Position numbers and translations under genes: made by a program
The notes under the pieces: generated by a model
Database searches by the model: none
The model's input: only the letters and a program-made list of their open reading frames with translations
Told to the model about the DNA's origin: nothing
Shown here: one piece after another, positions 4,817 through 41,209 of the stretch
Layout: each line of letters opens with the position of its first letter
Numbering within the stretch: the stretch's first letter is position 1
From: Bacteroides sp.
Lineage (GTDB): Bacteria > Bacteroidota > Bacteroidia > Bacteroidales > Bacteroidaceae
DNA: 64,000 nt
NCBI GenBank assembly: GCA_017466635.1
Contig: JAFTTU010000050.1
Location: 8,690-72,689, forward strand
Direction of reading: 5' to 3'

Positions 4817-7405
4817 ATGAATTTCAACAACTTTACGATTAAATCACAAGAAGCGGTTCAACAAGCCATCCAATTGGTACAGAGCCGTGGTCAGCAAGCC
4901 ATCGAACCCGAACACTTGTTGGCTGGAGTCTTGAAGGTAGGTGAAAACGTAACCAATTTCATCTTCCAGAAGTTAGGAATGAACGGCCAACAAGTAGCCC
5001 TGGTACTCGACCGTCAAATCAGCTCTTTCCCGAAGGTTTCGGGTGGAGAGCCATATTTGAGCCGAGGTGCCAATGAGGTGCTTCAGAAAGCCGTAGAATA
5101 TAGCAAGGGTTTGGGCGACGAATATGTTTCGTTGGAAGCCATGCTCTTGGCCATCTTGAATGTAAAAGGAAATGCGAGCACAATCTTGAAAGATGCCGGC
5201 ATGAACGACAAAGAACTTCGTGCCGCTATCAATGAATTGCGCCAAGGTCAGAACGTGACTTCCCAATCGAGCGAAGACACTTACCAATCATTGAGCAAGT
5301 ATGCCATCAACTTGATTGAAGCAGCACGTACAGGCAAGCTTGACCCAGTCATCGGTCGTGATGAAGAAATCCGTCGGGTGCTCCAAATCCTGAGCCGACG
5401 CACCAAGAACAACCCTATCTTGATAGGTGAACCGGGTACGGGTAAGACAGCCATTGTAGAAGGTCTTGCCCAACGTATCCTCCGTGGTGACGTGCCGGAG
5501 AACTTGAAGAACAAGCAACTCTTCTCGCTCGACATGGGTGCCCTCGTGGCCGGTGCCAAGTACAAGGGTGAATTCGAAGAACGATTGAAGTCGGTCATCA
5601 ACGAAGTGACTAAGTCGGACGGTAACATCATCCTCTTCATCGACGAAATCCATACCCTCGTGGGTGCAGGAAAGGGTGAAGGCGCCATGGATGCCGCCAA
5701 TATCTTGAAGCCTGCCTTGGCTCGTGGTGAATTGAGAAGTATCGGTGCCACTACCCTCGACGAGTATCAGAAGTACTTCGAAAAAGACAAGGCTCTGGAA
5801 CGTCGTTTCCAAACCGTCATGGTAGACGAACCGGATACAGCCAGCTCCATCTCTATCCTCCGCGGATTGAAGGAACGTTACGAAAACCACCACCAGGTGC
5901 GCATCAAGGACGAAGCCATCATCGCTGCCGTAGAGTTGAGCAACCGCTACATCACCGAGCGTTTCCTCCCGGACAAGGCCATCGACCTCATGGACGAAGC
6001 AGCAGCCAAGCTCCGCATGGAAAGAGACTCGTTGCCGGAAGAACTGGATGAAATCGAACGTCGACTGAAGCAACTCGAAATCGAACGCGAAGCCATCAAG
6101 CGTGAAAAGGACGAAGCCAAGCTTGCTATATTAAATAAGGAGATAGAAGAACTCCGCGAGCAGGAAAAGTCGTACAAGGCGAAGTGGCAAAGCGAAAAGG
6201 AACTGGTGAACAAGATTCAGCAGAACAAGCAAGAAATCGAGCAACTAAAGTTTGAAGCCGACAAGGCCGAACGCGAAGGCGATTACGGCAAGGTGGCCGA
6301 AATCCGTTATGGTAAGCTGAAAGCGTTGGAAGATGAAATCAACCACATCCAAGAGGATTTGAAGCATCAGCAAGGTGACAGTGCCATGATTAAGGAAGAG
6401 GTAACTGCCGAAGACATTGCCGATGTGGTTTCCCGCTGGACAGGCATCCCGGTGAGCAAGATGATGCAAAGTGAACGTGAAAAGCTGCTCTTCCTGGAAG
6501 ACGAATTGCACAAGCGTGTCATCGGTCAAGACGAAGCCATCCAGGCTGTGGCAGATGCCGTACGTCGTAGTCGTGCCGGTCTTCAAGACCCAAAACGTCC
6601 GATTGGCTCGTTCATCTTCCTCGGCACTACAGGTGTGGGTAAGACGGAATTGGCGAAGGCCTTGGCTGAATACTTGTTCGACGATGAAACCTTGATGACC
6701 CGTATCGACATGAGTGAGTATCAGGAAAAGCATACCGTGAGCCGACTCATCGGTGCGCCTCCGGGATACGTGGGTTACGATGAAGGTGGACAATTGACCG
6801 AAGCCGTAAGACGCAAGCCGTACTCCGTGGTGTTGTTCGACGAAATCGAAAAGGCACATCCGGATGTATTCAATGTCTTGCTTCAAGTATTGGACGACGG
6901 ACGCTTGACCGACAACAAGGGACGCACGGTGAACTTCAAGAACACCATCATCATCATGACATCCAACTTGGGCAGTGCATACATCCAAAGCCAATTTGAA
7001 AAGTTGACGGACGATAACCATGAACTGTTGGTAGAAGAAACCAAGAACGAAGTGATGAATATGTTGAAGAAAACCATCCGTCCGGAGTTCTTGAACCGTA
7101 TTGACGAGACCATCATGTTCCTGCCGTTGAACAAGCCGCAAATCGAACAGATTGTCCGCCTGCAAATCAAGGGCATCCAGCGCATGTTGGAAGACAATGG
7201 CGTGAACTTGCATCTGAGCGATATGGCCATCGACTATCTGGCAACCGCAGGCTATGACCCTGAATTCGGTGCCCGTCCGGTAAAGCGTGCTATTCAACGA
7301 TATTTGTTGAACGACTTGTCGAAGAAACTGCTCTCCCTGCAAGTAGACAGAAGCAAGCCGATCATCGTGGAACGTGGTAGCGACGGATTGATATTCAGAA
7401 ACTAG
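4817..7405 (+). CDS. clpB: ATP-dependent chaperone ClpB
   Basis: Two AAA+ modules ([16 protein letters not shown]), [10 protein letters not shown], coiled-coil middle domain, RIDMSEY. Confidence 0.98.
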
Positions 7406-24820: not shown

Positions 24821-26995
24821 CTATATCTCTTGTCTCTTAATCATCTCCGCAAAAAGCCCGCCTTTTTCCTTCAACGCCTCGTAAGTCCCTTCTTCGGCAA
24901 TGCGTCCTTTGTCGAGCACAATGATGCGGTCGCAATGACGGATGGTGCTGAGACGATGGGCAATGACTACACGGGTACATCCCATCTTGTCCAGATTGTC
25001 GGACACCATCTTCTGACTGACATTGTCCAAGGCACTGGTAGCCTCATCGAAGAACAGGATGGAAGGCTTGTTGAGCAAGGCACGGGCGATGAGCAAACGT
25101 TGTTTCTGTCCACCACTGAAACCGCCTCCACCTTCGCTGACAAGGGTGTTCATTCCCATCGGAAGAGCTTCGATATCCTTGTCGATACCTGCCAAACGAG
25201 CGGCTTCCCATGCATCATCCCGTGAACTCCATGGTGCGGTAATGGTAATATTACTGAACACATCACCCGGGAAAAGGCTTCCACTCTGCAAACATGTACC
25301 TATTTTCTGGCGCAAGCTGCTCTTGTCTACCTCATTCAAATCATAGTCGTCGTAATAAACGGCTCCCATTTGCGGCGTCTCGAAGCCCAACATCAAGCGC
25401 ATCAAGGTACTTTTCCCACAACCGGATTTTCCTACGATTGCCACATATTCTCCCGGATGGAATTTCAGTGATACATCATCCAGAATCCAAGGCGTATCTT
25501 CCGAATAGCGGAAAGACAAATGGCTGATTTCGATGGCCCCACTCAAGAACTGCACCTGTTTGGATTTTTCATCCACTTCGGGCACAGCTTCCATGATAGG
25601 CTTGGCCTGTTTCAACAAAGGCTCCATGCGCGAGAGTTGGGGAGCAATCCCAATCAAGGCGGTAAATGCACCACTTACCATTCCGTATGCAGCCGTAAAA
25701 GCGATGAAGTCGGAAGGAGAAACCTGACTCTTTACGGCCGTAAAGTAAATGTATGCCATCCCACCCAAGTTAAGCAATACCATCAAGGCACCCGAAAGTT
25801 TCAGCAACAAAGGAGGATTGAATTCCAGGCGGGCATTCTCCCGATACGTCTGCAACCATCGGGTAAAGGCACGCTTTTCAGAGCCTGTCAGCTTGATTTT
25901 CTGCACACCGTTGATGAGGTCGAATATCAGGGAAGTCAACTTGGCAGAAACAGCGATAATCTGCTTGTCCTGCTTCCGTTGAAACCAAAGCATCGCCAGT
26001 GTCAACAAGAATTGCCCGAAGATGATGGTCATCCCCGGCATCATCAAGGATTGGGCATAACTCTTCATCTGAAAGACATATACGATGGAAAATACAGCTG
26101 TAATGGAAGTACTTACCAACATATCGTTCGCCAAGTCGCACAAACGGCCTACACTCATAATGCGCTCGTTCAGTTCACCCGATGCATACTTCATGAAAAA
26201 CTTTGCCTTGAGCAAGAATGTACGTGCCATGACGGCAGGTTCTATCCGCACACTGACCAATTCCTTCAGACGCTTCAACATCCAGTCACGTATCAAATTG
26301 AAGAGAATGTCACCGATGGTCGCCCCTATCAGCAATGCCGCCACCGGAAGGATATCGCTTTTCGTACCGCTCGGTATCACGGTATCGAACATCTGTTTGT
26401 TCACGTAAGGAACCAACATCCCCATGACCGCAATCAAGCCGGAAACAAGAAACAACCGGACAATGTCTTTTGCATTGAACGACTTGGCCATGAATGCGAG
26501 CAAATCGCCCATTCCTATTTTCCGCATGGGCAATGCCGGATAGAAACAGAGGGCTTCGGGTTTCAAGTCCTTTTTCATGCGTTTGGAAGTCACCTCCACT
26601 CGAAGACCTTCCTTATTAATATAGGTATAGGAGGCTTTCATACGCGTCGGTATCAAGGCTACCCATTTGCCTTCCCGGTCATAGCCCAACATCGGCCCTA
26701 CAGCCATCTTCCACCACTTGCCTTTCAGCTCCACCCGGCGGTACATGATTCCCCTCGGATTCAGAATCTGAGCCAACTGCTCTTCCATCGTGAGGAAAGG
26801 ATTCTCTTCGTCCAACTCGAAGTCATCCACGATGTCCAGTGCGGCAAGCACCTCCCTCACCGCATGACTTCCGGAAGCCGCTTTGCCCTTCAAGGCCGAC
26901 TGCAAGCCCACTTCCTCCACAAACTGCCCGACCGCCTCATGCAAGTGCTGCTGCTCTTGCTCCAGTCTTTTGTCTATTTGCTCCTTGAATAACAT
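24821..26995 (-). CDS. NHLP/NHLM bacteriocin-system ABC transporter, non-proteolytic subunit
   Basis: N-terminal domain with R.V.L...WW...GPML but no QxxxxCG; ABC membrane domain; GKSGCGKST, FSGGQKQR, DEATSALDN. Confidence 0.85.
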   Translation of the reverse strand: MLFKEQIDKRLEQEQQHLHEAVGQFVEEVGLQSALKGKAASGSHAVREVLAALDIVDDFELDEENPFLTMEEQLAQILNPRGIMYRRVELKGKWWKMAVGPMLGYDREGKWVALIPTRMKASYTYINKEGLRVEVTSKRMKKDLKPEALCFYPALPMRKIGMGDLLAFMAKSFNAKDIVRLFLVSGLIAVMGMLVPYVNKQMFDTVIPSGTKSDILPVAALLIGATIGDILFNLIRDWMLKRLKELVSVRIEPAVMARTFLLKAKFFMKYASGELNERIMSVGRLCDLANDMLVSTSITAVFSIVYVFQMKSYAQSLMMPGMTIIFGQFLLTLAMLWFQRKQDKQIIAVSAKLTSLIFDLINGVQKIKLTGSEKRAFTRWLQTYRENARLEFNPPLLLKLSGALMVLLNLGGMAYIYFTAVKSQVSPSDFIAFTAAYGMVSGAFTALIGIAPQLSRMEPLLKQAKPIMEAVPEVDEKSKQVQFLSGAIEISHLSFRYSEDTPWILDDVSLKFHPGEYVAIVGKSGCGKSTLMRLMLGFETPQMGAVYYDDYDLNEVDKSSLRQKIGTCLQSGSLFPGDVFSNITITAPWSSRDDAWEAARLAGIDKDIEALPMGMNTLVSEGGGGFSGGQKQRLLIARALLNKPSILFFDEATSALDNVSQKMVSDNLDKMGCTRVVIAHRLSTIRHCDRIIVLDKGRIAEEGTYEALKEKGGLFAEMIKRQEI

Positions 26996-26998
26996 AAC

Positions 26999-29134
26999 TT
27001 AATCACATGCCACCAATTGTTTATACACGCCATCCTTCTCCAACAACTCCTGATGAGTTCCTCTTTCTACCACTTCACCCTTTTCCAATACCACAATTTC
27101 ATCACAATCGCGGATGGTACTAAGTCGGTGGGCTATCACTATCAACGTCACCCCCATCATGCGGATGGAGTCCATGATACGTTTTTCGGTTTCTGCATCC
27201 AAGGCACTGGTTGCTTCATCCATGATGAGGATGACCGGCTCGCGTGCCAAGGCTGCAGCTATCTCAATACGCTGCAACTGACCTCCCGAAAAGTTCTTTC
27301 CGCCCTTCACCAAACGGGTATTGAAACCTTCCGGACGCGACACCACATCTTCCCGTATCTGGGCATCCCGACAAGCCAATACCATGGCAAAATCTTCGAT
27401 GGAGGAATCCCACATCTTGATGTTGGCCATGATGGTATCGTCAAACATCACCACATTCTGGTCAATCATGGCTATCGAATTCGTGAATTCATCGTCATTG
27501 ATTTCTTGGCGGTATCTTCCGTCGAACAGAATTTCACCTTCCCAAGGTTGATACAAACCCGTAATCAACTTGGCTAATGTACTTTTACCGCATCCCGATG
27601 TGCCCACAAATGCCACACTCTTGCCCGGTTCTACCGTCATGGAGAAATTCTTGATTTGCGGTTGGGAGAAGCTGTTGTAGCCAAAGGATACATTCTTCAA
27701 CTCGATACGTCCACGCAATTTTCCACTTCCGTCCTGTCTTGCTTCCGTACTCTGTTGTTGCACCGGATATTTCAGCACGTCTTCCACACGTTCCATCTGA
27801 GTACGCATCTCTATCATCATTTCCGTTGCCGAGAACAACTGTTGGGCAGGAGCCGTAAATCCCGTCATAAATCCTTGGAATGCCAACAGCATACCGATGG
27901 TAAACTGGCCGTCCATAATCATATAGGCTCCCAATAGCAGGATGGCATTACCCGTCAAGGCTTGCAACAACTCCGGCCAAATGCCATAAAGTTGGTCGCG
28001 ACGGTCGGCACGGGCTTCCGAATTGTGCATATTGGTAAAGTAACCCACCCAATGATTGAAGAAACCGTTTTCGGCACCGGCCGCCTTGATGGTTTCGATA
28101 TTGTCCAGGCATGACATCGTTACCCCATAGTACTTTCCCATGTCCCTTTCAAAGACACGGGTCACATCTACTCGCTTTGTTGATATATAACTGGCCAACC
28201 CAATATTCAGCAACATGGCACCCAAGCCTATCAATGTCAGCCAAACACTATAGCGGAGCATGAAAGTGAGATACAGCACCAACAACATCATTTGAATGGC
28301 CAATGGAGCCAACTGCTGCACCAATGTAGCTGCAATGTTCTGATTGGATTTCTGCCGGAGAATCAAATCACCCACATAGCGTTGGGAGAAGAAGTCCATC
28401 GGCAACCGCAGCAGATGCCAGAAGAAGTTGCTGTTGGCTTCAAGAGCCATGGCCGCATTGTACTTCCGGCTATAAATACCTTTCAACCATTCGGTCAATA
28501 CATTCACTCCTATCACCGCCACGAAAGCTGCCATGAAGGGCTTGAACCAATCCGGATTCTTGCCGCTCAAGATATCGTCCATGAATATTTGCGAGAACAA
28601 CGGAGTGGCTATCCCAACGATTGCCGCCAACAAGCCGGTCACAAAGATAAAGAAAGCAGCCGCCCGGGTATTCTTCAGTCTTCGCTTCACAAAGCCCAAA
28701 ATGGAAGCACGCGAACCTCCCGGCTGAAAAGATTTTGTAGGCTCAAACACCAAGGCAATGCCTGTAAAGGCCCTGTCGAATTCTTCTTGAGTAACTTTGA
28801 CCTTTCCTCGCCCCGGGTCATTCAAGTAATGGGTATTCCCCCTTTTCCCCTTGTATACTACAAAGTGGTTGAAGTTCCAATGGATGATGGCAGGAGTTTC
28901 TCCTTGCAGCTCGTCCTCATCCAGCTTATAGGCATTGGCTTCCATGCCGTAGCTTCGTCCAGCCAGAAGCAATTGCTTGGCAGAACAACCGTCACGCGAT
29001 ACGCCACAATCCTTTCGTAGCTGTTCCAACGGCAACCACTTCTTATGATAAGCCAGTACCATCCCCAGCGAAGCGGCTCCGCACTCCACCATCTCCATCT
29101 GCATGATGACCGGTACATTCTTGACTTTTCCCAT
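26999..29134 (-). CDS. NHLP/NHLM-type peptidase-containing ABC transporter (C39 + ABC)
   Basis: Intact C39 catalytic motifs QMEMVECGAASL, HWNFNHFVV, YLNDP; R..CGVSRDG signature; GTSGCGKST, FSGGQ.QR. Confidence 0.92.
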   Translation of the reverse strand: MGKVKNVPVIMQMEMVECGAASLGMVLAYHKKWLPLEQLRKDCGVSRDGCSAKQLLLAGRSYGMEANAYKLDEDELQGETPAIIHWNFNHFVVYKGKRGNTHYLNDPGRGKVKVTQEEFDRAFTGIALVFEPTKSFQPGGSRASILGFVKRRLKNTRAAAFFIFVTGLLAAIVGIATPLFSQIFMDDILSGKNPDWFKPFMAAFVAVIGVNVLTEWLKGIYSRKYNAAMALEANSNFFWHLLRLPMDFFSQRYVGDLILRQKSNQNIAATLVQQLAPLAIQMMLLVLYLTFMLRYSVWLTLIGLGAMLLNIGLASYISTKRVDVTRVFERDMGKYYGVTMSCLDNIETIKAAGAENGFFNHWVGYFTNMHNSEARADRRDQLYGIWPELLQALTGNAILLLGAYMIMDGQFTIGMLLAFQGFMTGFTAPAQQLFSATEMMIEMRTQMERVEDVLKYPVQQQSTEARQDGSGKLRGRIELKNVSFGYNSFSQPQIKNFSMTVEPGKSVAFVGTSGCGKSTLAKLITGLYQPWEGEILFDGRYRQEINDDEFTNSIAMIDQNVVMFDDTIMANIKMWDSSIEDFAMVLACRDAQIREDVVSRPEGFNTRLVKGGKNFSGGQLQRIEIAAALAREPVILIMDEATSALDAETEKRIMDSIRMMGVTLIVIAHRLSTIRDCDEIVVLEKGEVVERGTHQELLEKDGVYKQLVACD

Positions 29135-29142
29135 ACTTCGCT

Positions 29143-29967
29143 TTATTTGGATTGCCGGTTAAACAACAAGTCGAACACAGGACGATTGCGTGTCACAATC
29201 TGCAAGCTGCAAAACGTACCTATCTTCATATTGATGTTTTCTCCCGATTGATGCGACCAACGGATTTTGCTCTTGTCCGATGGATGATCTTCCAGCTTAA
29301 TTTGTACCATAAAGGCTGCTTCCGATGGAAATACCGCCGATGTAAATTCTTCCAATTTGAACAAGTTTTGCGCTTCCTTGGATGATGTAGGAAGTTCGTT
29401 GATGGCGGTAATGCGTCCATACATATAGCCCACTTCCTCCCGCTTCAAATCGCTTGGGGTGGCTTGTACTTCCATCCCCACTTTCAGTTTGCGCAAGTCG
29501 GCATAAGTCACAAAAGCAATCATTTCCTTCAATTGGTTCACTTGGTCGTGTGGAAGCAGATAAACACAAGGCTCCAATGCACTGAACGATTCCTGCTGCA
29601 CCTTGTGAGAAAGCACAACACCCGAATGAGTGCTTCTCAATTCGCGAACAGCATCTTCCGATGTATAACGGAACAAGATGTCTCCCTTCTTTACTTCATC
29701 GCCTTTCTGGACGAAGACTTCCGTAATCCGCCCGTCGAGCGAAGCAGATACATGCATGATTTCCTGATGAGGGAAGGCTATGCCATTGATTTTCACAAAA
29801 TCGCTGATGGTGCTATTGAATGCCCAGACACAGGCAGCAACGACACATAGCAGGATGCTTGTCAACCAAAGATAAAACGAAGGTCCTGTCACCCGGATAT
29901 AGTCACTGATTTTATCCGGAGACTCCAATGTATCCATCGCCTGTTGGCGGAAAAGTTTGTTTCCCAT
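29143..29967 (-). CDS. NHLP-system secretion accessory protein (short HlyD-like, no alpha-hairpin)
   Basis: LFRQQA...LESPD N-terminus, single TM, adjacent lipoyl half-motifs, YG.I and P..LLF C-terminal motifs. Confidence 0.8.
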   Translation of the reverse strand: MGNKLFRQQAMDTLESPDKISDYIRVTGPSFYLWLTSILLCVVAACVWAFNSTISDFVKINGIAFPHQEIMHVSASLDGRITEVFVQKGDEVKKGDILFRYTSEDAVRELRSTHSGVVLSHKVQQESFSALEPCVYLLPHDQVNQLKEMIAFVTYADLRKLKVGMEVQATPSDLKREEVGYMYGRITAINELPTSSKEAQNLFKLEEFTSAVFPSEAAFMVQIKLEDHPSDKSKIRWSHQSGENINMKIGTFCSLQIVTRNRPVFDLLFNRQSK

Positions 29968-29983
29968 GAGGTTGAGTTATAAG

Positions 29984-30826
29984 TTATGATTGGATTCTTA
30001 CAGTAACATTCATGCCTTCCATCAAGCCGACGTTTCCTTTCACCCGGGCACGAACCTGAATCAATCCCTTTTCATCTACCAAAGGGTTCATGCTACAGAT
30101 TTCCCCCTGTTGCACTCCTACCGTGGTAGCTTGCGGAACGATTTCTACCTTTTGTCCCATCTTGATGAGGTGAAGTTCGTTCTCCAACACCTGGAATTCC
30201 ACTTCCATGTTGCTTGTCTGGATGATACGGCAAAAAGGCTCACTGCTGCCTGCCATGTGATGAGGCTTGGCGGTGAGGTTGGCTATCACCCCATCGAAAG
30301 GAGCGACCAATGTAGCATTTTCTATTTCTCTCAAAGCATTTTCCTTCTGAAGAGCAGCTTGTTCGTAACCGCTCTTCACCTTGGCAAGTTTCATCATGTC
30401 GGCAGGTACCTTATCCAAATGGTCAGGGTCATATCCTTGCCCTATCAGAATATCCTGAAGTTCAAGTTTGGCTTGTTCAAGGCTGATTTCGGCTTGACGC
30501 AACTGGCTGTTCAAGGCAAACACTTCCAAATCCGCCAACTTCTGTCCCTTGCCTACTCTAGCCCCGTTCTTCACATAGACATGGGCTATCTGTTCTTGCG
30601 AACGGAAATACAGGTCGGTATAATTGGCTGCTTTTACTTTTCCGGTAGCGGTCAGGCTATTGCTTGGAAGTTCTTTCACTTCGGGCTTGACTTCAGACAC
30701 CACTTCTTCCTGCACATCAACCGGTGTAGTTACCGGCTCTTGCGAAGTGGTAGCTTGCTGACTATTGGTGCTGCATGATGTCATGACCAAGCACACAGTG
30801 GCTAATATAAGGTGTTTTCTTTTCAT
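29984..30826 (-). CDS. Efflux periplasmic adaptor (MFP) lipoprotein
   Basis: Lipobox VMTSC, V.NG..V.KGQ.LA lipoyl motif, alpha-hairpin, APFDGVI, beta-barrel. Confidence 0.85.
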   Translation of the reverse strand: MKRKHLILATVCLVMTSCSTNSQQATTSQEPVTTPVDVQEEVVSEVKPEVKELPSNSLTATGKVKAANYTDLYFRSQEQIAHVYVKNGARVGKGQKLADLEVFALNSQLRQAEISLEQAKLELQDILIGQGYDPDHLDKVPADMMKLAKVKSGYEQAALQKENALREIENATLVAPFDGVIANLTAKPHHMAGSSEPFCRIIQTSNMEVEFQVLENELHLIKMGQKVEIVPQATTVGVQQGEICSMNPLVDEKGLIQVRARVKGNVGLMEGMNVTVRIQS

Positions 30827-30843
30827 AGATTTATTTCTGATGA

Positions 30844-30880
30844 CAAAGGTAAACTTTTTTAGGAATAATCACTATCTTTG
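30844..30880. promoter_or_regulatory. Divergent Bacteroidetes -7 promoter elements (exporter operon and GNAT)
   Basis: TACCTTTG on the - strand at 30844-30851 and TATCTTTG on the + strand at 30873-30880, each ~20 nt from a start codon. Confidence 0.65.
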
Positions 30881-30900
30881 TGACAAAAAAAAACAAGAAC

Positions 30901-31800
30901 ATGGAAACAAATCGCTATACCATCCTTCCTCATACAGCCATCCACCGAGATACGGACGACCTGAATGTGGATTTCTACCTTGACTTGACAGGAGGAAAAC
31001 AAAGCATTGTCTTCGGTCATCCCGAGGATGGATACTTGTTCATTGCCCCGAAAGAGAAACGATGGGCAGTGCGCCATATCTATGTTCTTCCTCATCGTCG
31101 AAATCAAGGTCTTTCGCGTGCTTTGCTCGATGCTGCCGCCCTCTATTGCAAGGATCAGCGAGTGGATTTCATGGTATATCTCACGTACAACAATGATTAC
31201 ACCCACAGATTTCTCGACCGCTATGTACATGAGCGAGGAATGACACCGTGCGTCCCTACCCGACTCTTCATTTTCGAAGACCATAGCTTTTTCCAAAGCC
31301 CCGAATGGCAAAAGACGATGCAACGAATGCAACTCATGACCGAACGGTGGGAAGCCAAAGGAGCCGTAACTGCTCACTTCGATGAATGTCCTGACGAGGT
31401 ATTGGAAAACCTTAAGGCTCTATACTATGAGACAGATGAAGAAAACTATCAAGTGGCAAGCGACATCTGGCCGTTCATCCCCGACCGATACGAGCCGTTG
31501 AGCTTCATTACCTATAAAGAAAACGAACCGATGACTTTTGTCTTCAGTCAACGGTTCGGCAACAGTATTTTGTTTTCAGGCAACCTTGCCTTGAAAAAAT
31601 ATCAGCATAATGGCTGTTTCATCCTCCCTCTCTATCGCTTCATCCAAAGCATAGCAGAAGACACCAGCATAGAGCGCATGACTTGCAAGATAGTGGGTTC
31701 CAATCACGAGGCAGTTCAATTGGCAGAGAATCTATGGTCACAAGCCAAACCTCGCTTTGTGAAGATGCAGGTGTTCGCTCATTTCGTGGAAGAGGAGTAA
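30901..31800 (+). CDS. Tandem GNAT-fold acetyltransferase-like protein
   Basis: Motif A IYVLPHRRNQGLSRALL; second degenerate module LALKKYQHNG ... SNHEAVQL. Confidence 0.7.
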   Translation: METNRYTILPHTAIHRDTDDLNVDFYLDLTGGKQSIVFGHPEDGYLFIAPKEKRWAVRHIYVLPHRRNQGLSRALLDAAALYCKDQRVDFMVYLTYNNDYTHRFLDRYVHERGMTPCVPTRLFIFEDHSFFQSPEWQKTMQRMQLMTERWEAKGAVTAHFDECPDEVLENLKALYYETDEENYQVASDIWPFIPDRYEPLSFITYKENEPMTFVFSQRFGNSILFSGNLALKKYQHNGCFILPLYRFIQSIAEDTSIERMTCKIVGSNHEAVQLAENLWSQAKPRFVKMQVFAHFVEEE

Positions 31801-31854
31801 TCAATAGCCGACTCTTCCTTCCCCTTCACACTTACCGGTGGCTTCGTTCCATGT
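31801..31854 (-). pseudogene. Remnant of an eighth Cys-rich precursor (C-terminal fragment only)
   Basis: Hand translation TWNEATGKCEGEGRVGY* matches the W-x6-C tail of the precursor family; no leader upstream, in-frame stop at 31921-31923. Confidence 0.7.
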
Positions 31855-31910
31855 GAAATCACTAAAACATTTTGCTGCCCCTAAATTGACGCAGAACCAA
31901 CAAAGGCTGC

Positions 31911-31990
31911 AAAACAAGCTTCACAAGTTTCACCGGCATATAACTATCCGTGTCTCAATATCCCCGTGTAAAACTTGCGAAACCTGTTTT
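31911..31990 (-). repeat. 23-bp imperfect inverted repeat
   Basis: 31911-31933 vs 31968-31990; all 4 mismatches are G-U compatible on the minus strand. Confidence 0.65.
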
Positions 31991-32014
31991 TATACTTAAT
32001 TCGAAATTACGAAG

Positions 32015-32200
32015 CTATCTGTCTTTATAACAACGTCCAGCCGACCATACACATCCGTCCTCATGTTTTTTGCACTCGTCTTTCTCCTTAATGCCCGGAC
32101 ACGCACCATTATCCCCAGTAGCCGGCCTCATGCCTCCTGACACTTTCAGCAACTCGTCTTCGGTCAAGGCTTTCTTCTTTTTAATATCTTCCTTTTTCAT
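32015..32200 (-). CDS. Double-glycine-leader Cys-rich precursor P1
   Basis: Leader ...LTEDELLKVSGG; core C-x8-C-x6-CVW-x4-C. Confidence 0.88.
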   Translation of the reverse strand: MKKEDIKKKKALTEDELLKVSGGMRPATGDNGACPGIKEKDECKKHEDGCVWSAGRCYKDR

Positions 32201-32220
32201 CCTATACTTCATTTAAAGTT

Positions 32221-32433
32221 TTACGTAGAAATTTGTTTTCCGGCTGTAGCCGGTTTATCCTTACAAGTCGAGGTAGCCTCGTCCCACACACATGTGCCAT
32301 CCCATCCCTCGCAGTTCTTCTGCTTCTTGAATGTGCTACAGGGCAGGTCAGGTAACTGGCCATGACCTCCACTCACCTTCAGTAGTTCTTCATCGGAAAG
32401 AGATTTTTTCCTATTGTTTCGTTCATCTTTCAT
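32221..32433 (-). CDS. Double-glycine-leader Cys-rich precursor P2
   Basis: Leader ...LSDEELLKVSGG; core C-x8-C-x6-CVW-x6-C; TACATTTG upstream (32464-32471). Confidence 0.9.
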   Translation of the reverse strand: MKDERNNRKKSLSDEELLKVSGGHGQLPDLPCSTFKKQKNCEGWDGTCVWDEATSTCKDKPATAGKQIST

Positions 32434-32573
32434 AACCATACATTTTCAAGATTAACAATGAGACAAATGTAGGCAATAAATATAAACAAAACAACATTTA
32501 TTCAATTTTTTTCATATATTTGCAAAAGAACGTTTTTGATATTATTGTTGAAAAACTTATCATACGAATGCCT

Positions 32574-33866
32574 ATGTTAACCAAATTGTTCGGGTTCAAT
32601 CCCAAAGAAACGACCATCCGCACGGAAATCTTTGCGGGTATTACGACTTTCCTCACCATGTCGTACATCTTGGCGGTCAATCCAGCCATGTTCAGTGTGC
32701 TCGACGGTATGCCTGCCGGAGCTGCCTTTACTGCTACCGCCTTGGCTGCTGTCATCGGTACGCTCACCATGGCTTTTTGGGCCAAACTTCCTTTCGGTCT
32801 TGCTCCCGGTATGGGACTGAATGCCTTCTTTGTCTATACGGTTTGTCTGGGGATGGGTTATCCTTGGCAATTCGCACTTACCGCCGTACTGATTGAGGGC
32901 TTAATCTTCATCCTGCTTACGGTGACGAAAATGCGCGAAGCCATCGTCAATGCCATTCCGCTCAACCTGCGTTATGCCATCGGTGCAGGTATCGGTTTAT
33001 TCATTGCCTTCATCGGTTTACAGAATGCCGGAGTAGTGGTCAATAGTGATGCTACCCTGATTGTATTGGGTGATATCACAACCGGGCCTGCTTTGCTAGC
33101 CATGGTGGGACTTATCATCACGGGATTCCTCTATGCCAAGAACGTGCCAGGTGCCATGCTTATCGGCATCATGGCGACAACACTCATTGGCATCCCGATG
33201 GGGATCACTGAATTCAAGGGAGTATTCTCACAACCTCAATCCATTGCGGACATTTTCTGTCAATTCCAGTGGGATAATATCTTTACGATGGATATGCTGA
33301 TAGTGGTATTCACCATGTTGTTCATGGACTTGTTCGATACGGTAGGTTCGCTAGTCGGGGTATGTACCAAATCGGGGATGATTAACAAGGATGGTAGCAT
33401 CAGCCGTATCAACGAGGCATTTATGGCAGATGCCATTGCCACTACGGCAGGGGCTTGTCTAGGTACTTGTACCACGACGACTTACGTAGAAAGCGCTTCA
33501 GGAGTGGCTATCGGTGGACGTTCGGGACTCACCGCCTTTGTGGTGGTTTGTTGCTTCATCATTTCCTTGTTTCTGTCACCACTCTTCCTGTCCATCCCAT
33601 CGGCAGCTACAGCACCGGTACTGATTATTGTCGGTCTGTTCATGTTGGAGCCTGTGCGTCGGATTGACTTCAGCGACTATACGGAATCCATTCCTGCCTT
33701 TGTGTGTATCATTACCATTCCGTTGGCTTACTCCATCTCCGATGGTATTCTGCTCAGCGTCATCTGTTATGTGCTGATGAATGTGCTTTGCGGGAATTTC
33801 AAGAAACTCACTCCGGCCATGTATATTCTGGCGGTGCTGTTCATCCTGAAGTATTTGTTTATTTGA
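32574..33866 (+). CDS. NCS2/AzgA family nucleobase (purine) permease, accessory copy
   Basis: AGITTFLTMSYILAVNP, APGMGLNAFF, YVESASGV..GGRSGLTA; likely start 32574. Confidence 0.92.
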   Translation: MLTKLFGFNPKETTIRTEIFAGITTFLTMSYILAVNPAMFSVLDGMPAGAAFTATALAAVIGTLTMAFWAKLPFGLAPGMGLNAFFVYTVCLGMGYPWQFALTAVLIEGLIFILLTVTKMREAIVNAIPLNLRYAIGAGIGLFIAFIGLQNAGVVVNSDATLIVLGDITTGPALLAMVGLIITGFLYAKNVPGAMLIGIMATTLIGIPMGITEFKGVFSQPQSIADIFCQFQWDNIFTMDMLIVVFTMLFMDLFDTVGSLVGVCTKSGMINKDGSISRINEAFMADAIATTAGACLGTCTTTTYVESASGVAIGGRSGLTAFVVVCCFIISLFLSPLFLSIPSAATAPVLIIVGLFMLEPVRRIDFSDYTESIPAFVCIITIPLAYSISDGILLSVICYVLMNVLCGNFKKLTPAMYILAVLFILKYLFI

Positions 33867-33874
33867 TAGCAAAA

Positions 33875-33910
33875 TGTCCTGTCCTCCTTCCGAGGAAGGA
33901 GGACAGGACA
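33875..33910. terminator. Strong hairpin between convergent NCS2 permease and P3
   Basis: tgtcctgtcctccttcc / ggaaggaggacaggaca 17-bp perfect inverted repeat. Confidence 0.75.
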
Positions 33911-33924
33911 AACGTTAAAGAGAT

Positions 33925-34119
33925 TCAATAGGTTATCTTTTTATCACCTATACATTTTTCAGTTTCCTTGTTCCACTCGCATCCAAAATTCTCGCATGCT
34001 TCCTGATTCTTCTTATTCTTACATGTAATGGTTATACCAAAATCACCATTACCACCCGTTACTTCCAGCAATTCGTCTTCGGAAAGCACTTTTTTCTTGT
34101 TTGAATTTTCTTTTTTCAT
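33925..34119 (-). CDS. Double-glycine-leader Cys-rich precursor P3
   Basis: Leader ...LSEDELLEVTGG; core C-x8-C-x4-CEW-x6-C. Confidence 0.9.
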   Translation of the reverse strand: MKKENSNKKKVLSEDELLEVTGGNGDFGITITCKNKKNQEACENFGCEWNKETEKCIGDKKITY

Positions 34120-34152
34120 AATCGTACCTGATTAAAATTTTCACGCAGCCAT

Positions 34153-34353
34153 CTACTTGCTGACTGACATTTCTTTTGCCATACAGGTTGAAGTTACCGT
34201 ATCCCATTCACATTCATCACCTCTATTCTCACAATTCTTTTGCTTCTTGACATCCTTACATGGAGGCATCGGACACATGCCATGTCCACCACTTACCTTC
34301 AACAATTCGTCTTCTGAAAGGGCTTTCCTCTTGTTCATCTTATTGTCGTTCAT
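34153..34353 (-). CDS. Double-glycine-leader Cys-rich precursor P4
   Basis: Leader ...LSEDELLKVSGG; core has an extra fifth Cys, then C-x8-C-x6-CEW-x6-C. Confidence 0.9.
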   Translation of the reverse strand: MNDNKMNKRKALSEDELLKVSGGHGMCPMPPCKDVKKQKNCENRGDECEWDTVTSTCMAKEMSVSK

Positions 34354-34370
34354 AAATCTTATGGTTTAAA

Positions 34371-34580
34371 TTACTTTTCCACACACTTTCCGGAAGTACC
34401 ATCCCACTTACACTTATCAAAATCCATGAAAGTACATTGCTTTTTCTTCTTCCGTTCATGACAAGCCTGCACATCACTTTCCGTCAGCGGAGCTCCACTT
34501 CCCAAATCATCCCCTCCCGTCACTTTCAGCAATTCTTCTTCGGAAAGGAGTTTCTTCTTGTTGGACTGATTTTCTTCCAT
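34371..34580 (-). CDS. Double-glycine-leader Cys-rich precursor P5
   Basis: Leader ...LSEEELLKVTGG; core C-x8-C-x7-CKW-x6-C; TATATTTG upstream (34611-34618). Confidence 0.9.
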   Translation of the reverse strand: MEENQSNKKKLLSEEELLKVTGGDDLGSGAPLTESDVQACHERKKKKQCTFMDFDKCKWDGTSGKCVEK

Positions 34581-34737
34581 AATTCAGATTAGATTAAATC
34601 GTTGAATGCACAAATATAGTCTTTTTTTGAGAAAAAGACTATATTATTTGGTTAATTTTTCTCACACCAATCAATATATAATAGCTTGTCATAGAAACTC
34701 CCTATCCAGTATAAAAAAAACAAATCCTGCTTTCAGC

Positions 34738-34810
34738 CTTCAGACCTTTTGATTGTGAATGAGTTGTGCTGAAGGCAAGGTGGTTTCTGCCTTCAGTATG
34801 GCTTCATTAC
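34738..34810 (+). repeat. 73-bp repeat, copy 1 (inverted relative to 41121-41193)
   Basis: Ungapped hand alignment, 64/73 identical; internal ctgaaggca/tgccttcag hairpin. Confidence 0.85.
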
Positions 34811-34923
34811 ACATGTATAATTTTATGTCAAGCTCTTACTCAAGGAAAATAAACGGAATAATTGCTGTTTTCTAAAAAAAAGGCTACATTTGCGCATTCA
34901 TGTATTCAATATAATATATAGGT

Positions 34924-35151
34924 ATGAAAGAGAATCAATCGAGCAAAAAGAAAACCTTGTCCGAAGACGAATTGTTGAATGTAACGGGTGGTGATATGAT
35001 GGGTATGAGACTGCCTGATTTCGGTCCGGTGCCTTGTAGCAGATCCAAGAAAGAAAAAAGCTGTAAGAAGAATGAACATTGTGAATGGAATACAGCATCT
35101 TCGTCTTGTCAGGAAAAGCCCGAGGCTACCGGTAAGCAAATGGCAACGTAA
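34924..35151 (+). CDS. Double-glycine-leader Cys-rich precursor P6
   Basis: Leader ...LSEDELLNVTGG; core C-x8-C-x5-CEW-x6-C; TACATTTG at 34885-34892. Confidence 0.9.
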   Translation: MKENQSSKKKTLSEDELLNVTGGDMMGMRLPDFGPVPCSRSKKEKSCKKNEHCEWNTASSSCQEKPEATGKQMAT

Positions 35152-35186
35152 TATTTGTAGAAGCTAATGGCTATCTTCAAATAGTA

Positions 35187-36614
35187 ATGAAAAATTTCTT
35201 CTACATATTGAAAACCTTGGACGTGAAGTGCAGCTTCGACTATACCCGTGACCTGTTCTTAGCACAAGAAAAGAACCATTCGTTGTGGGGTATCAAGAAG
35301 CTGTTGGAGCACTATGGCGTAAAAGTAACTCCCATCCTGTCCGAAGCGAAATCCATAGATGCTTTGGATTATCCGTTTGTGTGTCAAACGAAGGAAGGAA
35401 TGACGGCATTCACTCGTCCTCCGAAAGACATACCTGCTTTTCTCGAACAATGGGACGGTTATGCCTTGCTTTGCGATGCCTCCCATGCCAAGGAACCTCA
35501 TTATGTCTGGCACAAGTTGAAGGAATGTTTTGTGTATGGCTTACCATGGGCTACATTGGCAGGTGTCGTGCTTACCTCGCTTTGCTTCTTATGGGAGCCG
35601 TTCAGCCTTTCCCGATTGTTGCTTGTCCTGTTCAATGCTATGGGCTTCTATTTCAGTTACCGCTCGGCTGTGGGCGAGTGTGCTGGTAGTTGTAGCGTGG
35701 TGACAGAATCACCGGCCGGCAAGCTTTTCGGTTATAGTTTGAGTGTGATAGGCGTGGCATATTTCGGTGTGTCGTTACTACCCACCTTGTTCATTCCTGC
35801 ATGGATGCACGTGTGGAATTGGATAGCCATCGTTGCATTGCTGATGCCTGTATGGAGCATTGCCCATCAGGCATTCGTACTTCATGCCTGGTGCAAGAAT
35901 TGCATGGTGGTACAGCTGATGGTCATTTTGTCAGCTATCGTAGTCATGACCGGGGACTTCTGCTCATGGGAAACCTTTTCGGTGCAATCTCTTGTTGCCT
36001 TGCCTTCATTCTATCTGTTGGCCGTTTATTTGTTGGACATGGCTTTCAATCATTATAAGATTGTCCAGCACCCCCCAATGGACGGTACAGTACTCCGGTT
36101 GATGCACAATCCCGTGCTTCGCGAAGAAATCCTCCGTTCGGGCAAAAAGGTCGATGCGTCCGAAGTGCCTGATGTGTGGGTGATGAATCCGGAAGGAAAA
36201 GAGGAATTGTTCCTCGCCATCAGCTTGCATTGTGTCCATTGCAAGGAACAGTTCTTCAAGCTTTATAAGGCGATGGAGAAAGGGGAACTGAAAATGTACC
36301 GCATTCGCATAGCCATCAGTCCTTCGCCTCAAGCTGCCAAGGTAATAGAGGCATTGGCAGCTACAGCCATACACGAAAGCATGGAAAAAGCCATCCGCCT
36401 ATTGGCCGAATGGTATGAAACGCAAAACCGCAAGCTGTTCCTTATGTCGGTCAAGAAGAACTTACCGATGGAGGGAGTGAAGGAAGTGTTGGACAGTATG
36501 AACAAGGCGGTAGAACGTTTGGACATAAACGGATTGCCAGCTATGTCGTTGGGCGGTTATGAAATAACCCCTACCATTTTCTGGGCAAAGGTAGAATGGG
36601 ATAGCTTGTCATAA
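35187..36614 (+). CDS. Fusion of inactive C39-like domain, VKOR domain and thioredoxin/DsbA-like domain
   Basis: SLWGIKKLLEHYGV and F.EQWDGYALL (C39-like scaffold without catalytic motif); VKOR ECAGSCSVVTES and WCKNC; Trx CVHC and INGLP. Confidence 0.82.
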   Translation: MKNFFYILKTLDVKCSFDYTRDLFLAQEKNHSLWGIKKLLEHYGVKVTPILSEAKSIDALDYPFVCQTKEGMTAFTRPPKDIPAFLEQWDGYALLCDASHAKEPHYVWHKLKECFVYGLPWATLAGVVLTSLCFLWEPFSLSRLLLVLFNAMGFYFSYRSAVGECAGSCSVVTESPAGKLFGYSLSVIGVAYFGVSLLPTLFIPAWMHVWNWIAIVALLMPVWSIAHQAFVLHAWCKNCMVVQLMVILSAIVVMTGDFCSWETFSVQSLVALPSFYLLAVYLLDMAFNHYKIVQHPPMDGTVLRLMHNPVLREEILRSGKKVDASEVPDVWVMNPEGKEELFLAISLHCVHCKEQFFKLYKAMEKGELKMYRIRIAISPSPQAAKVIEALAATAIHESMEKAIRLLAEWYETQNRKLFLMSVKKNLPMEGVKEVLDSMNKAVERLDINGLPAMSLGGYEITPTIFWAKVEWDSLS

Positions 36615-36621
36615 TCCCTTT

Positions 36622-37236
36622 TTACTCTTGAACAAGCCGATAGAATACATGTGGAACTCTTCCTTCGCGCTTGATTTTCTCCTCCATATACCATTGGCGG
36701 AGTTCAGCGGAAGCCTTGTTTTTCAGCAAGCCGGTTAGCTCGGCATATTTCTTGCAGGTAATGAAACCGTTTTCCTTCAAATGAGCAATCAATAGTTGGA
36801 AGCGCTCTTCCGGTGTGTATTCATCGGATGAAGTCTGGAATGCACGATGAGGCTCCACTCTTTCCAATTTCATTTGCATGCCTATCTTTTTCCGCAAGGT
36901 CTTGCTTGCCTTGAAGTTCACATTGTTGAAACGGATGGACTTGGAGCGTATTTCGTCCTTTTCTTTCACCTTTCGGCTGGTGAGGCTAGCCGAGAAAGTT
37001 CCGATTTCGCCCAACTTCACGTGATACCCTTCTGCAAGATACTCCGCTATGGTATCTTCCAGAAACATGACAACTCCCTGTACGATGGCAGGATTGAACC
37101 CCGTATGATGCGAAGCCCGCTCCATCAAATCCTTCATGGTCTTGGTACCCGAAATCACCAATTGAGGATAAAGTTCCTGCTCTCCCTCCTTGCCCTGCAA
37201 GTTGGGCAACACTCTGAGGTCATACTTTGCTTTCAT
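36622..37236 (-). CDS. Bacteroidetes HU-related DNA-binding protein with C-terminal winged-helix-like domain
   Basis: L.EGYHVKLGEIGTFS and VNFKAS HU-like motifs; GFIT...YAELTGL...A..EL helix-turn-helix tail. Confidence 0.8.
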   Translation of the reverse strand: MKAKYDLRVLPNLQGKEGEQELYPQLVISGTKTMKDLMERASHHTGFNPAIVQGVVMFLEDTIAEYLAEGYHVKLGEIGTFSASLTSRKVKEKDEIRSKSIRFNNVNFKASKTLRKKIGMQMKLERVEPHRAFQTSSDEYTPEERFQLLIAHLKENGFITCKKYAELTGLLKNKASAELRQWYMEEKIKREGRVPHVFYRLVQE

Positions 37237-37454
37237 TTTCTTCTTGTTGGTTAAGCTTGGAATTATACTTCCCTAAGGTTATGTTTATCGGATTATATCT
37301 ATTTCCCATACCTTGTGATATTCTTACTGTTGCTTGGTATTTATATATCATATTATGAAATGTAAATCCTAAATCTTGGGATATACTTATACATGCATAC
37401 AAAAATACTCATAATATGGGAAATACAAGCTTAATGAATGAAAATAGCAGAGGA

Positions 37455-37646
37455 TTACTTTGAGGAACAAGTCTGTCGCTCACTCCAAACACAAGCAACA
37501 TCCTGCTCACAATCCTTTTTCTTCTTATGGTTGTTGCAACTTTTAGGAGGTTCATTTATTTGTAGCGTTACATCAGCATAATCACTATTAATACCACCCG
37601 ATACATCCAACAATTCTTTTTCATTGAGTTCTCTCATATCATTCAT
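37455..37646 (-). CDS. Double-glycine-leader Cys-rich precursor P7
   Basis: Leader MNDMRELNEKELLDVSGG; core C-x8-C-x5-CVW-x5-C; TATCTTTG upstream (37679-37686). Confidence 0.88.
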   Translation of the reverse strand: MNDMRELNEKELLDVSGGINSDYADVTLQINEPPKSCNNHKKKKDCEQDVACVWSERQTCSSK

Positions 37647-40967: not shown

Positions 40968-41120
40968 TCAAAAGATTATTACCGAATACAAAATTACTTA
41001 AAAAGGTCAAATGTAATTTACTATTTCATTATATTTGTAGTTAAAATTCTCTTTTTTATGGAAAAAAAAGCACAATATCGGAGACTATTCATCCACATGG
41101 CGCTGATATTTAAACTGAAT

Positions 41121-41193
41121 GCAATGAAACCAAGCTGAAGGCAGAGACCACCCTGTCTTCAGCACAACTCATTCACAATCAATAAGTCTGAAG
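41121..41193 (-). repeat. 73-bp repeat, copy 2
   Basis: Reverse complement matches 34738-34810 at 64/73 positions. Confidence 0.85.
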
Positions 41194-41209
41194 TCAGAAT
41201 CACTATAAT

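Follow-up and report, generated by a model that had tools for sequence, protein, structure and literature searches.

What would a gut bacterium export from a locus that encodes seven divergent double-glycine (GG) leader peptides beside a leader-cleaving transporter and a fused thiol oxidase? The locus occupies positions 24,821 to 37,646 of a 64,000-nucleotide stretch of DNA from Bacteroides sp. (GenBank assembly GCA_017466635.1, contig JAFTTU010000050.1, positions 8,690 to 72,689, forward strand), hereafter the window; gene coordinates below are positions in it. Bacteroidales are dominant in animal guts, and few peptide weapons are known among them. With moderate confidence, we interpret the locus as a dedicated line for secreted, disulfide-stapled mini-proteins, most likely a multi-peptide, narrow-spectrum antibacterial arsenal that resembles the bacteroidetocins but is assembled from other parts. 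An initial annotation of this DNA, made from its letters alone, had proposed exported disulfide-stapled peptides on one scaffold and of no class that it recognised; its parts proved to be real and linked elsewhere, but a described system of the same kind exists and the scaffold appears to be a known one.

The precursor genes, each called from its open reading frame (ORF) and the family alignment, are as follows.

32015-32212, minus strand: precursor P1
32221-32439, minus strand: precursor P2
33925-34119, minus strand: precursor P3
34153-34353, minus strand: precursor P4, with five Cys; modelled with AF2
34371-34580, minus strand: precursor P5
34924-35151, plus strand: precursor P6, ending 35 nt upstream of the oxidase gene
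37455-37646, minus strand: precursor P7, with an 18-aa leader
31801-31866, minus strand: remnant of an eighth precursor, C-terminal end only, whose tail and stop match the tail of database precursor P0051

All seven lie where small ORFs with a common GG leader had been placed, and a six-frame motif scan of the whole window agrees: the leader motif occurs in P1-P7 and, besides these, only inside two long ORFs without leader context. Alignment of P1-P7 gives a leader consensus of L-x3-E-L-L-x-V-x-G-G, with L, E-L-L, V and G-G invariant, and a core consensus of C-x3-K-x4-C-x(4-7)-C-x-W-x(4-6)-C, with all four Cys, the Lys and the Trp invariant; the four Cys and the aromatic residue two positions after Cys3 are thus found in seven of seven precursors. 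Leaders span 18-27 amino acids (aa) and cores 38-52 aa, the core range first given. Of the six precursors to which a 23-aa leader was ascribed, P1 and P2 conform only from an internal Met start, and the four Cys ascribed to every core are indeed conserved, P4 having one more. Identity averages 60% among leaders and 29% among cores. The cores are neutral and strongly hydrophilic (grand average of hydropathy, GRAVY, about -1; K+R roughly equal to D+E). In the DNA itself, the 76-nt stretches that encode the leaders of P1-P5 make up a family of direct repeats (67-79% identity, with P3 as the reference copy), and the P6 leader region gives inverted-repeat matches of 73-74%. P2 ends 8 nt upstream of P1 and the two are probably co-transcribed; P2-P1 and P5-P4-P3 look like two small operons. 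The eighth-copy remnant retains the stretch from the Trp after Cys3 to the stop.

The source genome, a 2.0-Mb metagenome-assembled genome from an animal gut that is 55% complete, contains nine matches to the precursor profile. Two of its other contigs (C138, locus L008; C68, locus L009) encode more distant GG-leader peptides outside the cluster, one of them with a longer four-Cys core that places it in a sister subfamily, the other with three Cys and two His in a spacing rather like that of a zinc-binding motif.

The precursors belong to a wider family. Searched against 1.84 billion representatives, the P1-P7 profile returned 153 matches at E <= 1e-3. Among the 150 matches listed, 116 are small peptides, about 95 with a GG leader and the same core, and 34 are larger proteins that carry a 25-aa four-Cys module in tandem. 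Across an 83-sequence family, Cys1, Cys3, Cys4 and the Trp never vary and conservation of Cys2 is 90% or higher; the core Lys that is invariant in the window is not conserved. The P3 protein recurs identically on 12 public contigs and P4 on 20. No Pfam or NCBIfam model matches the precursors above its cut-off and no source names any of the about 95 similar precursor clusters in public data.

AF2 models the core with confidence (pLDDT 87-92) as a short helix followed by a beta-hairpin, which fits the earlier proposal of a single scaffold with a variable surface. That scaffold, however, appears not to be new: the core resembles the four-Cys, two-disulfide module of trypanosome VSG C-terminal domains, and PSI domains. 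A profile search of PDB sequences matched both four-Cys modules of VSG C-terminal domains (E 2.6e-4), and in the same search the leader resembled that of the PCAT1 substrate CtA (E 5e-3). VIA-align ranked VSG C-terminal and PSI domains at the top, with weak Z scores (2.0-2.4), as is to be expected of a module of about 30 residues, and the top Foldseek matches were nearly all plexin/semaphorin PSI domains, with E above 1. The precursors do not match PF01437 and give weak, sub-cut-off matches to PSI_PlexinA-B and Paramecium_SA; only the GG end of the leader matches leader_Nif11 (E 0.15). The VSG module is described as conserving four Cys, an aromatic residue and its fold (PMC12226131). Shared with the structured region of the Trypanosoma brucei VSG C-terminal domain (1XU6, 2JWG, 5M4T) and with the N-terminal half of PSI (PF01437) are the four Cys, the aromatic residue after Cys3 and, as far as the weak structural scores indicate, the helix plus beta-hairpin. 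Given these matches, the scaffold appears to be a known mini-domain, in those cases part of a large eukaryotic surface protein and here a free-standing bacterial peptide with an export leader.

The tandem-module proteins (P0054-P0195, from metagenomes) carry the 25-aa module 3-23 times each and include the subtilase P0060, the 5132-aa P0078 and Lys-rich proteins without signal peptides. Pfam PSI was called on the repeats of several of them.

The genes that would process and export these peptides flank and interrupt the precursor array.

24821..26995, minus strand: ABC2, permease/ATPase without a peptidase domain (TIGR03797; Pfam ABC_membrane and ABC_tran)
26999..29134, minus strand: ABC1, C39-peptidase ABC exporter of LahT/NHLP type (TIGR03796, Peptidase_C39, LahT150)
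29143..29967, minus strand: HlyD-like inner-membrane adaptor (TIGR03794)
29984..30826, minus strand: second membrane-fusion protein (MFP; HlyD_D23 and HlyD_3)
30880..31800, plus strand: tandem GNAT acetyltransferase (Acetyltransf_1, 4.3e-7; likely start 30901)
35187..36614, plus strand: C39-like/VKOR/DsbA-like fusion of 475 aa, predicted disulfide-forming enzyme (Pfam VKOR, 4.5e-9)

ABC1 scores above the cut-off of NCBIfam TIGR03796 (905.7 bits against 853.3) and contains Peptidase_C39 (Pfam, 6.6e-36). Its residues 6-136 match LahT150 (PDB 6MPZ; E 3.5e-54), and the regions of the catalytic Cys, His and Asp are preserved, in agreement with the intact motifs reported earlier. ABC2 and the HlyD-like adaptor fall slightly under the cut-offs of their best matches, TIGR03797 (693.5 bits against 709.4) and TIGR03794 (134.1 against 156.2), and the N-terminal 175 aa of ABC2 found no PDB sequence match. 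Pfam and NCBIfam matches bear out the remaining parts that had been named, a non-proteolytic ABC partner, two MFPs and a tandem GNAT; an ESM Atlas look-up returned only generic GNAT clusters for the last. No gene for an outer-membrane factor lies on the contig, and many lie elsewhere in the genome. The locus had also been set apart by a lack of YcaO, LanM and radical-SAM enzymes: the window's contig (C33) has no Radical_SAM or YcaO match, and a LanC search gave none either, but its control was equally silent.

The oxidase has the three-part build first described, except that its C-terminal domain is DsbA/BdbD-like rather than a plain thioredoxin (Trx). In a profile search, residues 7-109 match the C39 domain of ComA (E 2e-4); the Pfam C39 match is weak and the QxxxxCG motif is missing. 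Residues 142-259 match Synechococcus VKOR from its first transmembrane (TM) helix onward, and the AF2 model (pLDDT 84.5) has six TM helices, an extra one preceding VKOR TM1. Six redox Cys (the VKOR loop pair, a CxxC and the Trx-fold CxxC) are invariant in 75 of 75 fusion homologues, 14 close and 61 distant. Helix counting, rather than model geometry, was used to assign disulfide pairing and the side-by-side placement of domains, and it assigns the C39-like and DsbA-like domains to the same face of the membrane as both VKOR Cys sites. In all 75 homologues the density of K+R is 2-5 times higher on this redox side, a bias reversed relative to the Synechococcus enzyme, and the N-terminal domain, read by eye and with no predictor, has no visible signal-peptide-like hydrophobic stretch. 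One-sided domains, charge bias and the missing signal peptide together suggest, short of proof, that the fusion faces inward, so that its redox parts possibly lie on the cytoplasmic side with the leader-protease-like domain. An inward-facing precedent is the VKOR of Aeropyrum pernix (Hibender 2017, as cited in PMC12453122). A predicted complex of the C39-like domain (residues 1-112) with P4 scored 0.30 (mark 0.32), which speaks neither for nor against binding.

More distant fusions with the same three domains (20-25% identity) are common in Bacteroidota. Often the next gene encodes a GG-leader peptide, in most cases a six-Cys one, and one C39 ABC transporter accompanies the pair. Dozens of such loci (L028-L099) encode peptide cores of many unrelated types, and Hydrotalea flava alone encodes five of these peptides, their leaders 15 aa long. 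An incomplete literature collection yielded no paper joining VKOR with C39 or double-glycine, nor one uniting VKOR, Bacteroidetes, thioredoxin and peptidase.

Do these genes travel together? Co-occurrence of precursor, exporter and VKOR fusion, which the initial annotation had named as one check, was seen in searches begun from either end. Seen from the oxidase side, the homologues (72%, 56% and 46% identity) all have HlyD-ABC1-ABC2 downstream of them, and the 56% locus also holds three family precursors, an AraC gene and a TolC-like gene; in Parabacteroides distasonis An897, precursor, GNAT, VKOR fusion, HlyD, ABC1 and ABC2 are consecutive on one strand. From the precursor side, the P0075 locus on a gut metagenome contig (L128) carries two precursors along with counterparts of ABC1 (48%), ABC2 (43%), the GNAT (25%) and the VKOR fusion (31%). 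Across related loci, ABC2 homologues (43-82% identity) come after ABC1 and HlyD-like adaptors are 61-82% identical; homologues of the second MFP (61-75%) occur in L013 and L015, and none in the Parabacteroides loci. The GNAT homologues, about 300 aa long, lie between precursor and VKOR fusion in An897 (31%) and in L128 (25%, E 2.5e-32). Because the five-part set recurs down to 31% identity in the fusion, we count the GNAT as part of it: as read from gene order and sequence, precursor, GNAT, VKOR fusion, ABC1 and ABC2 are a module conserved at deep divergence.

Upstream of ABC1 in L128, a 64-aa gene (5501-5695) resembles the membrane-anchor end of the HlyD-like adaptor alone; that locus has no full adaptor. 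In An897 and in the Parabacteroides and gut-contig operons without precursor and GNAT (L018-L022) alike, the upstream neighbour is a 380-aa protein that belongs to no known family. P0056 and P0095 sit on contigs of less than 1 kb and hence have no gene context.

In a sample of 200 genomes from the same family, only G093 contained precursors, and it was also the sole genome with a close VKOR-fusion homologue, adjoined by ABC1 and ABC2; 15 further genomes had distant homologues only. An order-level sample of 400 genomes gave no precursor match except in the source genome. Because the precursor family is rare among species representatives, these distribution statistics are weak.

Taken together, these features suggest a pathway. 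The seven precursors are translated with their 18-27-aa leaders, and the C39 domain of ABC1 would cleave after Gly-Gly, as its close homology to LahT and PCAT1 suggests. On the same homology, ABC1/ABC2, the HlyD-like adaptor, the second MFP and an outer-membrane factor supplied from elsewhere would export the 38-52-aa cores. The invariant Cys and the genetic linkage point to the fusion as the enzyme that would make two disulfides per core, probably Cys1-Cys3 and Cys2-Cys4, and pass electrons to menaquinone; its catalytically dead C39-like domain probably holds the substrate. Oxidation may precede export, acting on the leader-bearing precursor, because the C39-like domain shares the redox side and the charge bias points towards the cytoplasm. 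The GNAT could either acetylate the peptides or protect the producer. By analogy with bacteroidetocin A, which targets BamA, the folded cores, with one helix-plus-hairpin scaffold and varied surfaces, would act outside the cell, most plausibly by binding surface proteins of competitors.

A more specific version of this pathway, which we put forward tentatively and regard as rather doubtful, has a cytoplasm-facing fusion gripping the GG leader with its dead protease domain, disulfides closed before export, and the pump secreting a folded PSI/VSG-like mini-protein. If true, this would make the enzyme a disulfide maturase guided by the leader, as well as the first VKOR in bacteria to face inward, and its products a new peptide class akin to ribosomally synthesised and post-translationally modified peptides (RiPPs).

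Variation among strains bears on what the peptides are for. A contig from another study (run X17) joins 34910 to 35139, which indicates a related strain without P6, and such strain-level variation in gene content (P6 loss, the decayed eighth copy) is a pattern typical of bacteriocin loci. The segment 34120-34600 (P4, P5) found no run from other studies at >=90% likeness and no contig joining across it. Contigs from RNA (metatranscriptome) libraries span the exporter, the GNAT, P2-permease-P3 and the oxidase. An inverted repeat of 80 nt (86% complementary; 34732-34811 and 41120-41199) bounds a 6.3-kb segment with P6, the oxidase, an HU-like gene, P7, a nucleoside hydrolase and an ABC importer; inversion of this segment is plausible, because gene order differs from that of the related locus L013. 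Two further genes are interleaved with the precursors, neither of them found again in the related loci examined.

32520-33866, plus strand: nucleobase permease
36622-37236, minus strand: HU-like DNA-binding gene

Several observations weigh against an antibacterial arsenal made in this way. The neutral, very hydrophilic cores are unlike membrane-active bacteriocins, no immunity gene is evident at the locus, and housekeeping genes (the permease and the HU-like gene) interrupt it. Exporter and oxidase also occur apart from their supposed cargo: oxidase-HlyD-ABC1-ABC2 stands without precursor or GNAT in L018-L022 (Parabacteroides, gut contigs), L013 has exporter and oxidase and has likewise lost precursor and GNAT, and, conversely, precursor P0119 is solitary, without other module genes. 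The RNA-library contigs fall short of proving transcription, as such libraries may contain DNA. As for the oxidase, peptides leaving by a type I-like route would not meet an enzyme in the periplasm, and to our knowledge only an archaeon is known to have a VKOR that faces inward.

Part of this evidence suits a different role for the same machinery, in which the peptides are not toxins but secreted binding modules, that is, signals, adhesion or biofilm factors, or ligands or decoys for host or microbial receptors. Eukaryotes use the fold in surface proteins (PSI and VSG C-terminal domains), the module occurs in tandem within large secreted or surface proteins, a subtilase included, and hydrophilic, neutral cores without an immunity gene fit binders as well. 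GG-motif peptides serve as cyanobacterial biofilm proteins (PMC4997328) and pneumococcal pheromones (PMC7595303), and in related loci STAS, SpoIIE (partner-switching) or AraC genes lie by the exporter. In this locus itself, however, receptor kinases and regulators are missing; an arms race accounts better than a signal for seven divergent paralogues that strains gain and lose; and in Bacteroidales the only GG-leader four-Cys peptides characterised by experiment have toxin activity (PMC6671954). We regard a non-toxin role as fairly unlikely.

A second alternative makes the peptides true RiPPs whose key, class-defining modification is acetylation by the GNAT, on Lys or on the new N-terminus, with the disulfides secondary. 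In its favour, three locus types that have diverged from one another all keep a GNAT, about 300 aa long, between the precursor and oxidase genes, and the cores are Lys-rich, with one Lys invariant in the window. That Lys, however, is not kept in the wider family, L015 has three precursors and no GNAT homologue within 15 kb, and GNATs of peptide loci are frequently immunity enzymes; we judge this account improbable.

That the locus is a plain member of the bacteroidetocin (class IIf) family we consider very improbable: the phylum, a GG leader, four Cys, a C39 ABC transporter and a thiol oxidoreductase are shared (PMC6671954), but not the parts that define the family; the ABC transporters have just 21% identity, and a profile comparison with the fusion was negative. 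Least credible of all is that the small ORFs arose by chance or have decayed, with the exporter carrying other cargo, since the homologous exporter/oxidase loci without nearby precursors are outweighed by seven paralogues with invariant Cys and Trp, many homologues elsewhere with conservative changes, synteny with the same enzymes kept at 31% identity and a confident predicted core fold.

The toxin reading, and the module more broadly, matter for several reasons. A conserved module for secreting disulfide-locked mini-proteins is apparently undescribed, and its unnamed precursor family, about a hundred sequence clusters, sets variable surfaces on a small, stable scaffold. If the peptides are toxins, they represent a second, independent path to disulfide-bonded bacteriocins in Bacteroidales and a natural library of compact binders. 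The oxidase raises the question of where disulfides form in an anaerobe without general Dsb machinery, and the compact operon of a cultured P. distasonis strain offers a practical system for experiments.

How, then, does the locus compare with known systems? That it belonged to no described class overlooked the bacteroidetocins, a system of the same kind (PMC6671954). Bacteroidetocins A-D are proposed class IIf bacteriocins (Coyne 2019, PMC6671954; Matano 2021, PMC8546649), Bacteroidales toxins made as GG-leader four-Cys peptides with a dedicated oxidoreductase. The bacteroidetocin B locus was obtained through the Coyne primer, whose site occurs on eleven human-gut contigs; the one mapped (L105) encodes a 221-aa membrane protein, the precursor (15-aa leader, 42-aa four-Cys core), a 173-aa Trx-like oxidoreductase and one C39 ABC transporter. 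In L105 and L107, both low-coverage human-gut contigs, the bacteroidetocin B gene is frameshifted, by assembly error or real decay.

Both systems occur in Bacteroidales and combine a GG leader cut by a C39 ABC transporter, a four-Cys core of about 40 aa, a thiol oxidoreductase dedicated to the locus and no obvious immunity gene; bacteroidetocin B is likewise hydrophilic (GRAVY -0.85). They differ in the leader (15-16 aa in bacteroidetocins against 18-27 aa and another consensus here), in the oxidoreductase (173-aa Trx-like against a VKOR fusion) and in gene content, where the bacteroidetocin locus encodes one peptide and only one ABC transporter, lacks a GNAT and adds the 221-aa membrane protein. 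The 21% identity noted above is that of the bacteroidetocin B transporter to ABC1. The bacteroidetocin B precursor scored 9.8 bits against the family hidden Markov model and had no meaningful tblastn match in the window, where the membrane protein and the oxidoreductase had none; hhalign of these last two with the VKOR fusion gave probabilities of <1%. Since none of leader, core, oxidoreductase and membrane protein is detectably similar, the locus is an analogue of the bacteroidetocins and not a member.

The export apparatus is closest to the LahT/NHLP-type exporters (TIGR03796, TIGR03797, TIGR03794; 6MPZ, PMC6363468), with which it shares a C39 domain near LahT150, a second ABC protein, an HlyD-like adaptor and many precursors per locus. 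It departs from them in its cargo, whose leaders are short, of class II type and without an NHLP or Nif11 domain, in the lack of radical-SAM or YcaO genes on the contig, and in the added second MFP. The oxidase, finally, has the VKOR core, loop Cys pair, CxxC and Trx-fold CxxC of the Synechococcus VKOR-thioredoxin fusion (3KP9, 4NV2, 4NV5, 4NV6). To this plan it adds an inactive C39-like N-terminal domain and one TM helix, with a C-terminal domain that is DsbA-like; its reversed charge bias suggests the opposite orientation, and it is linked to an operon for peptide export, not to protein folding in general.

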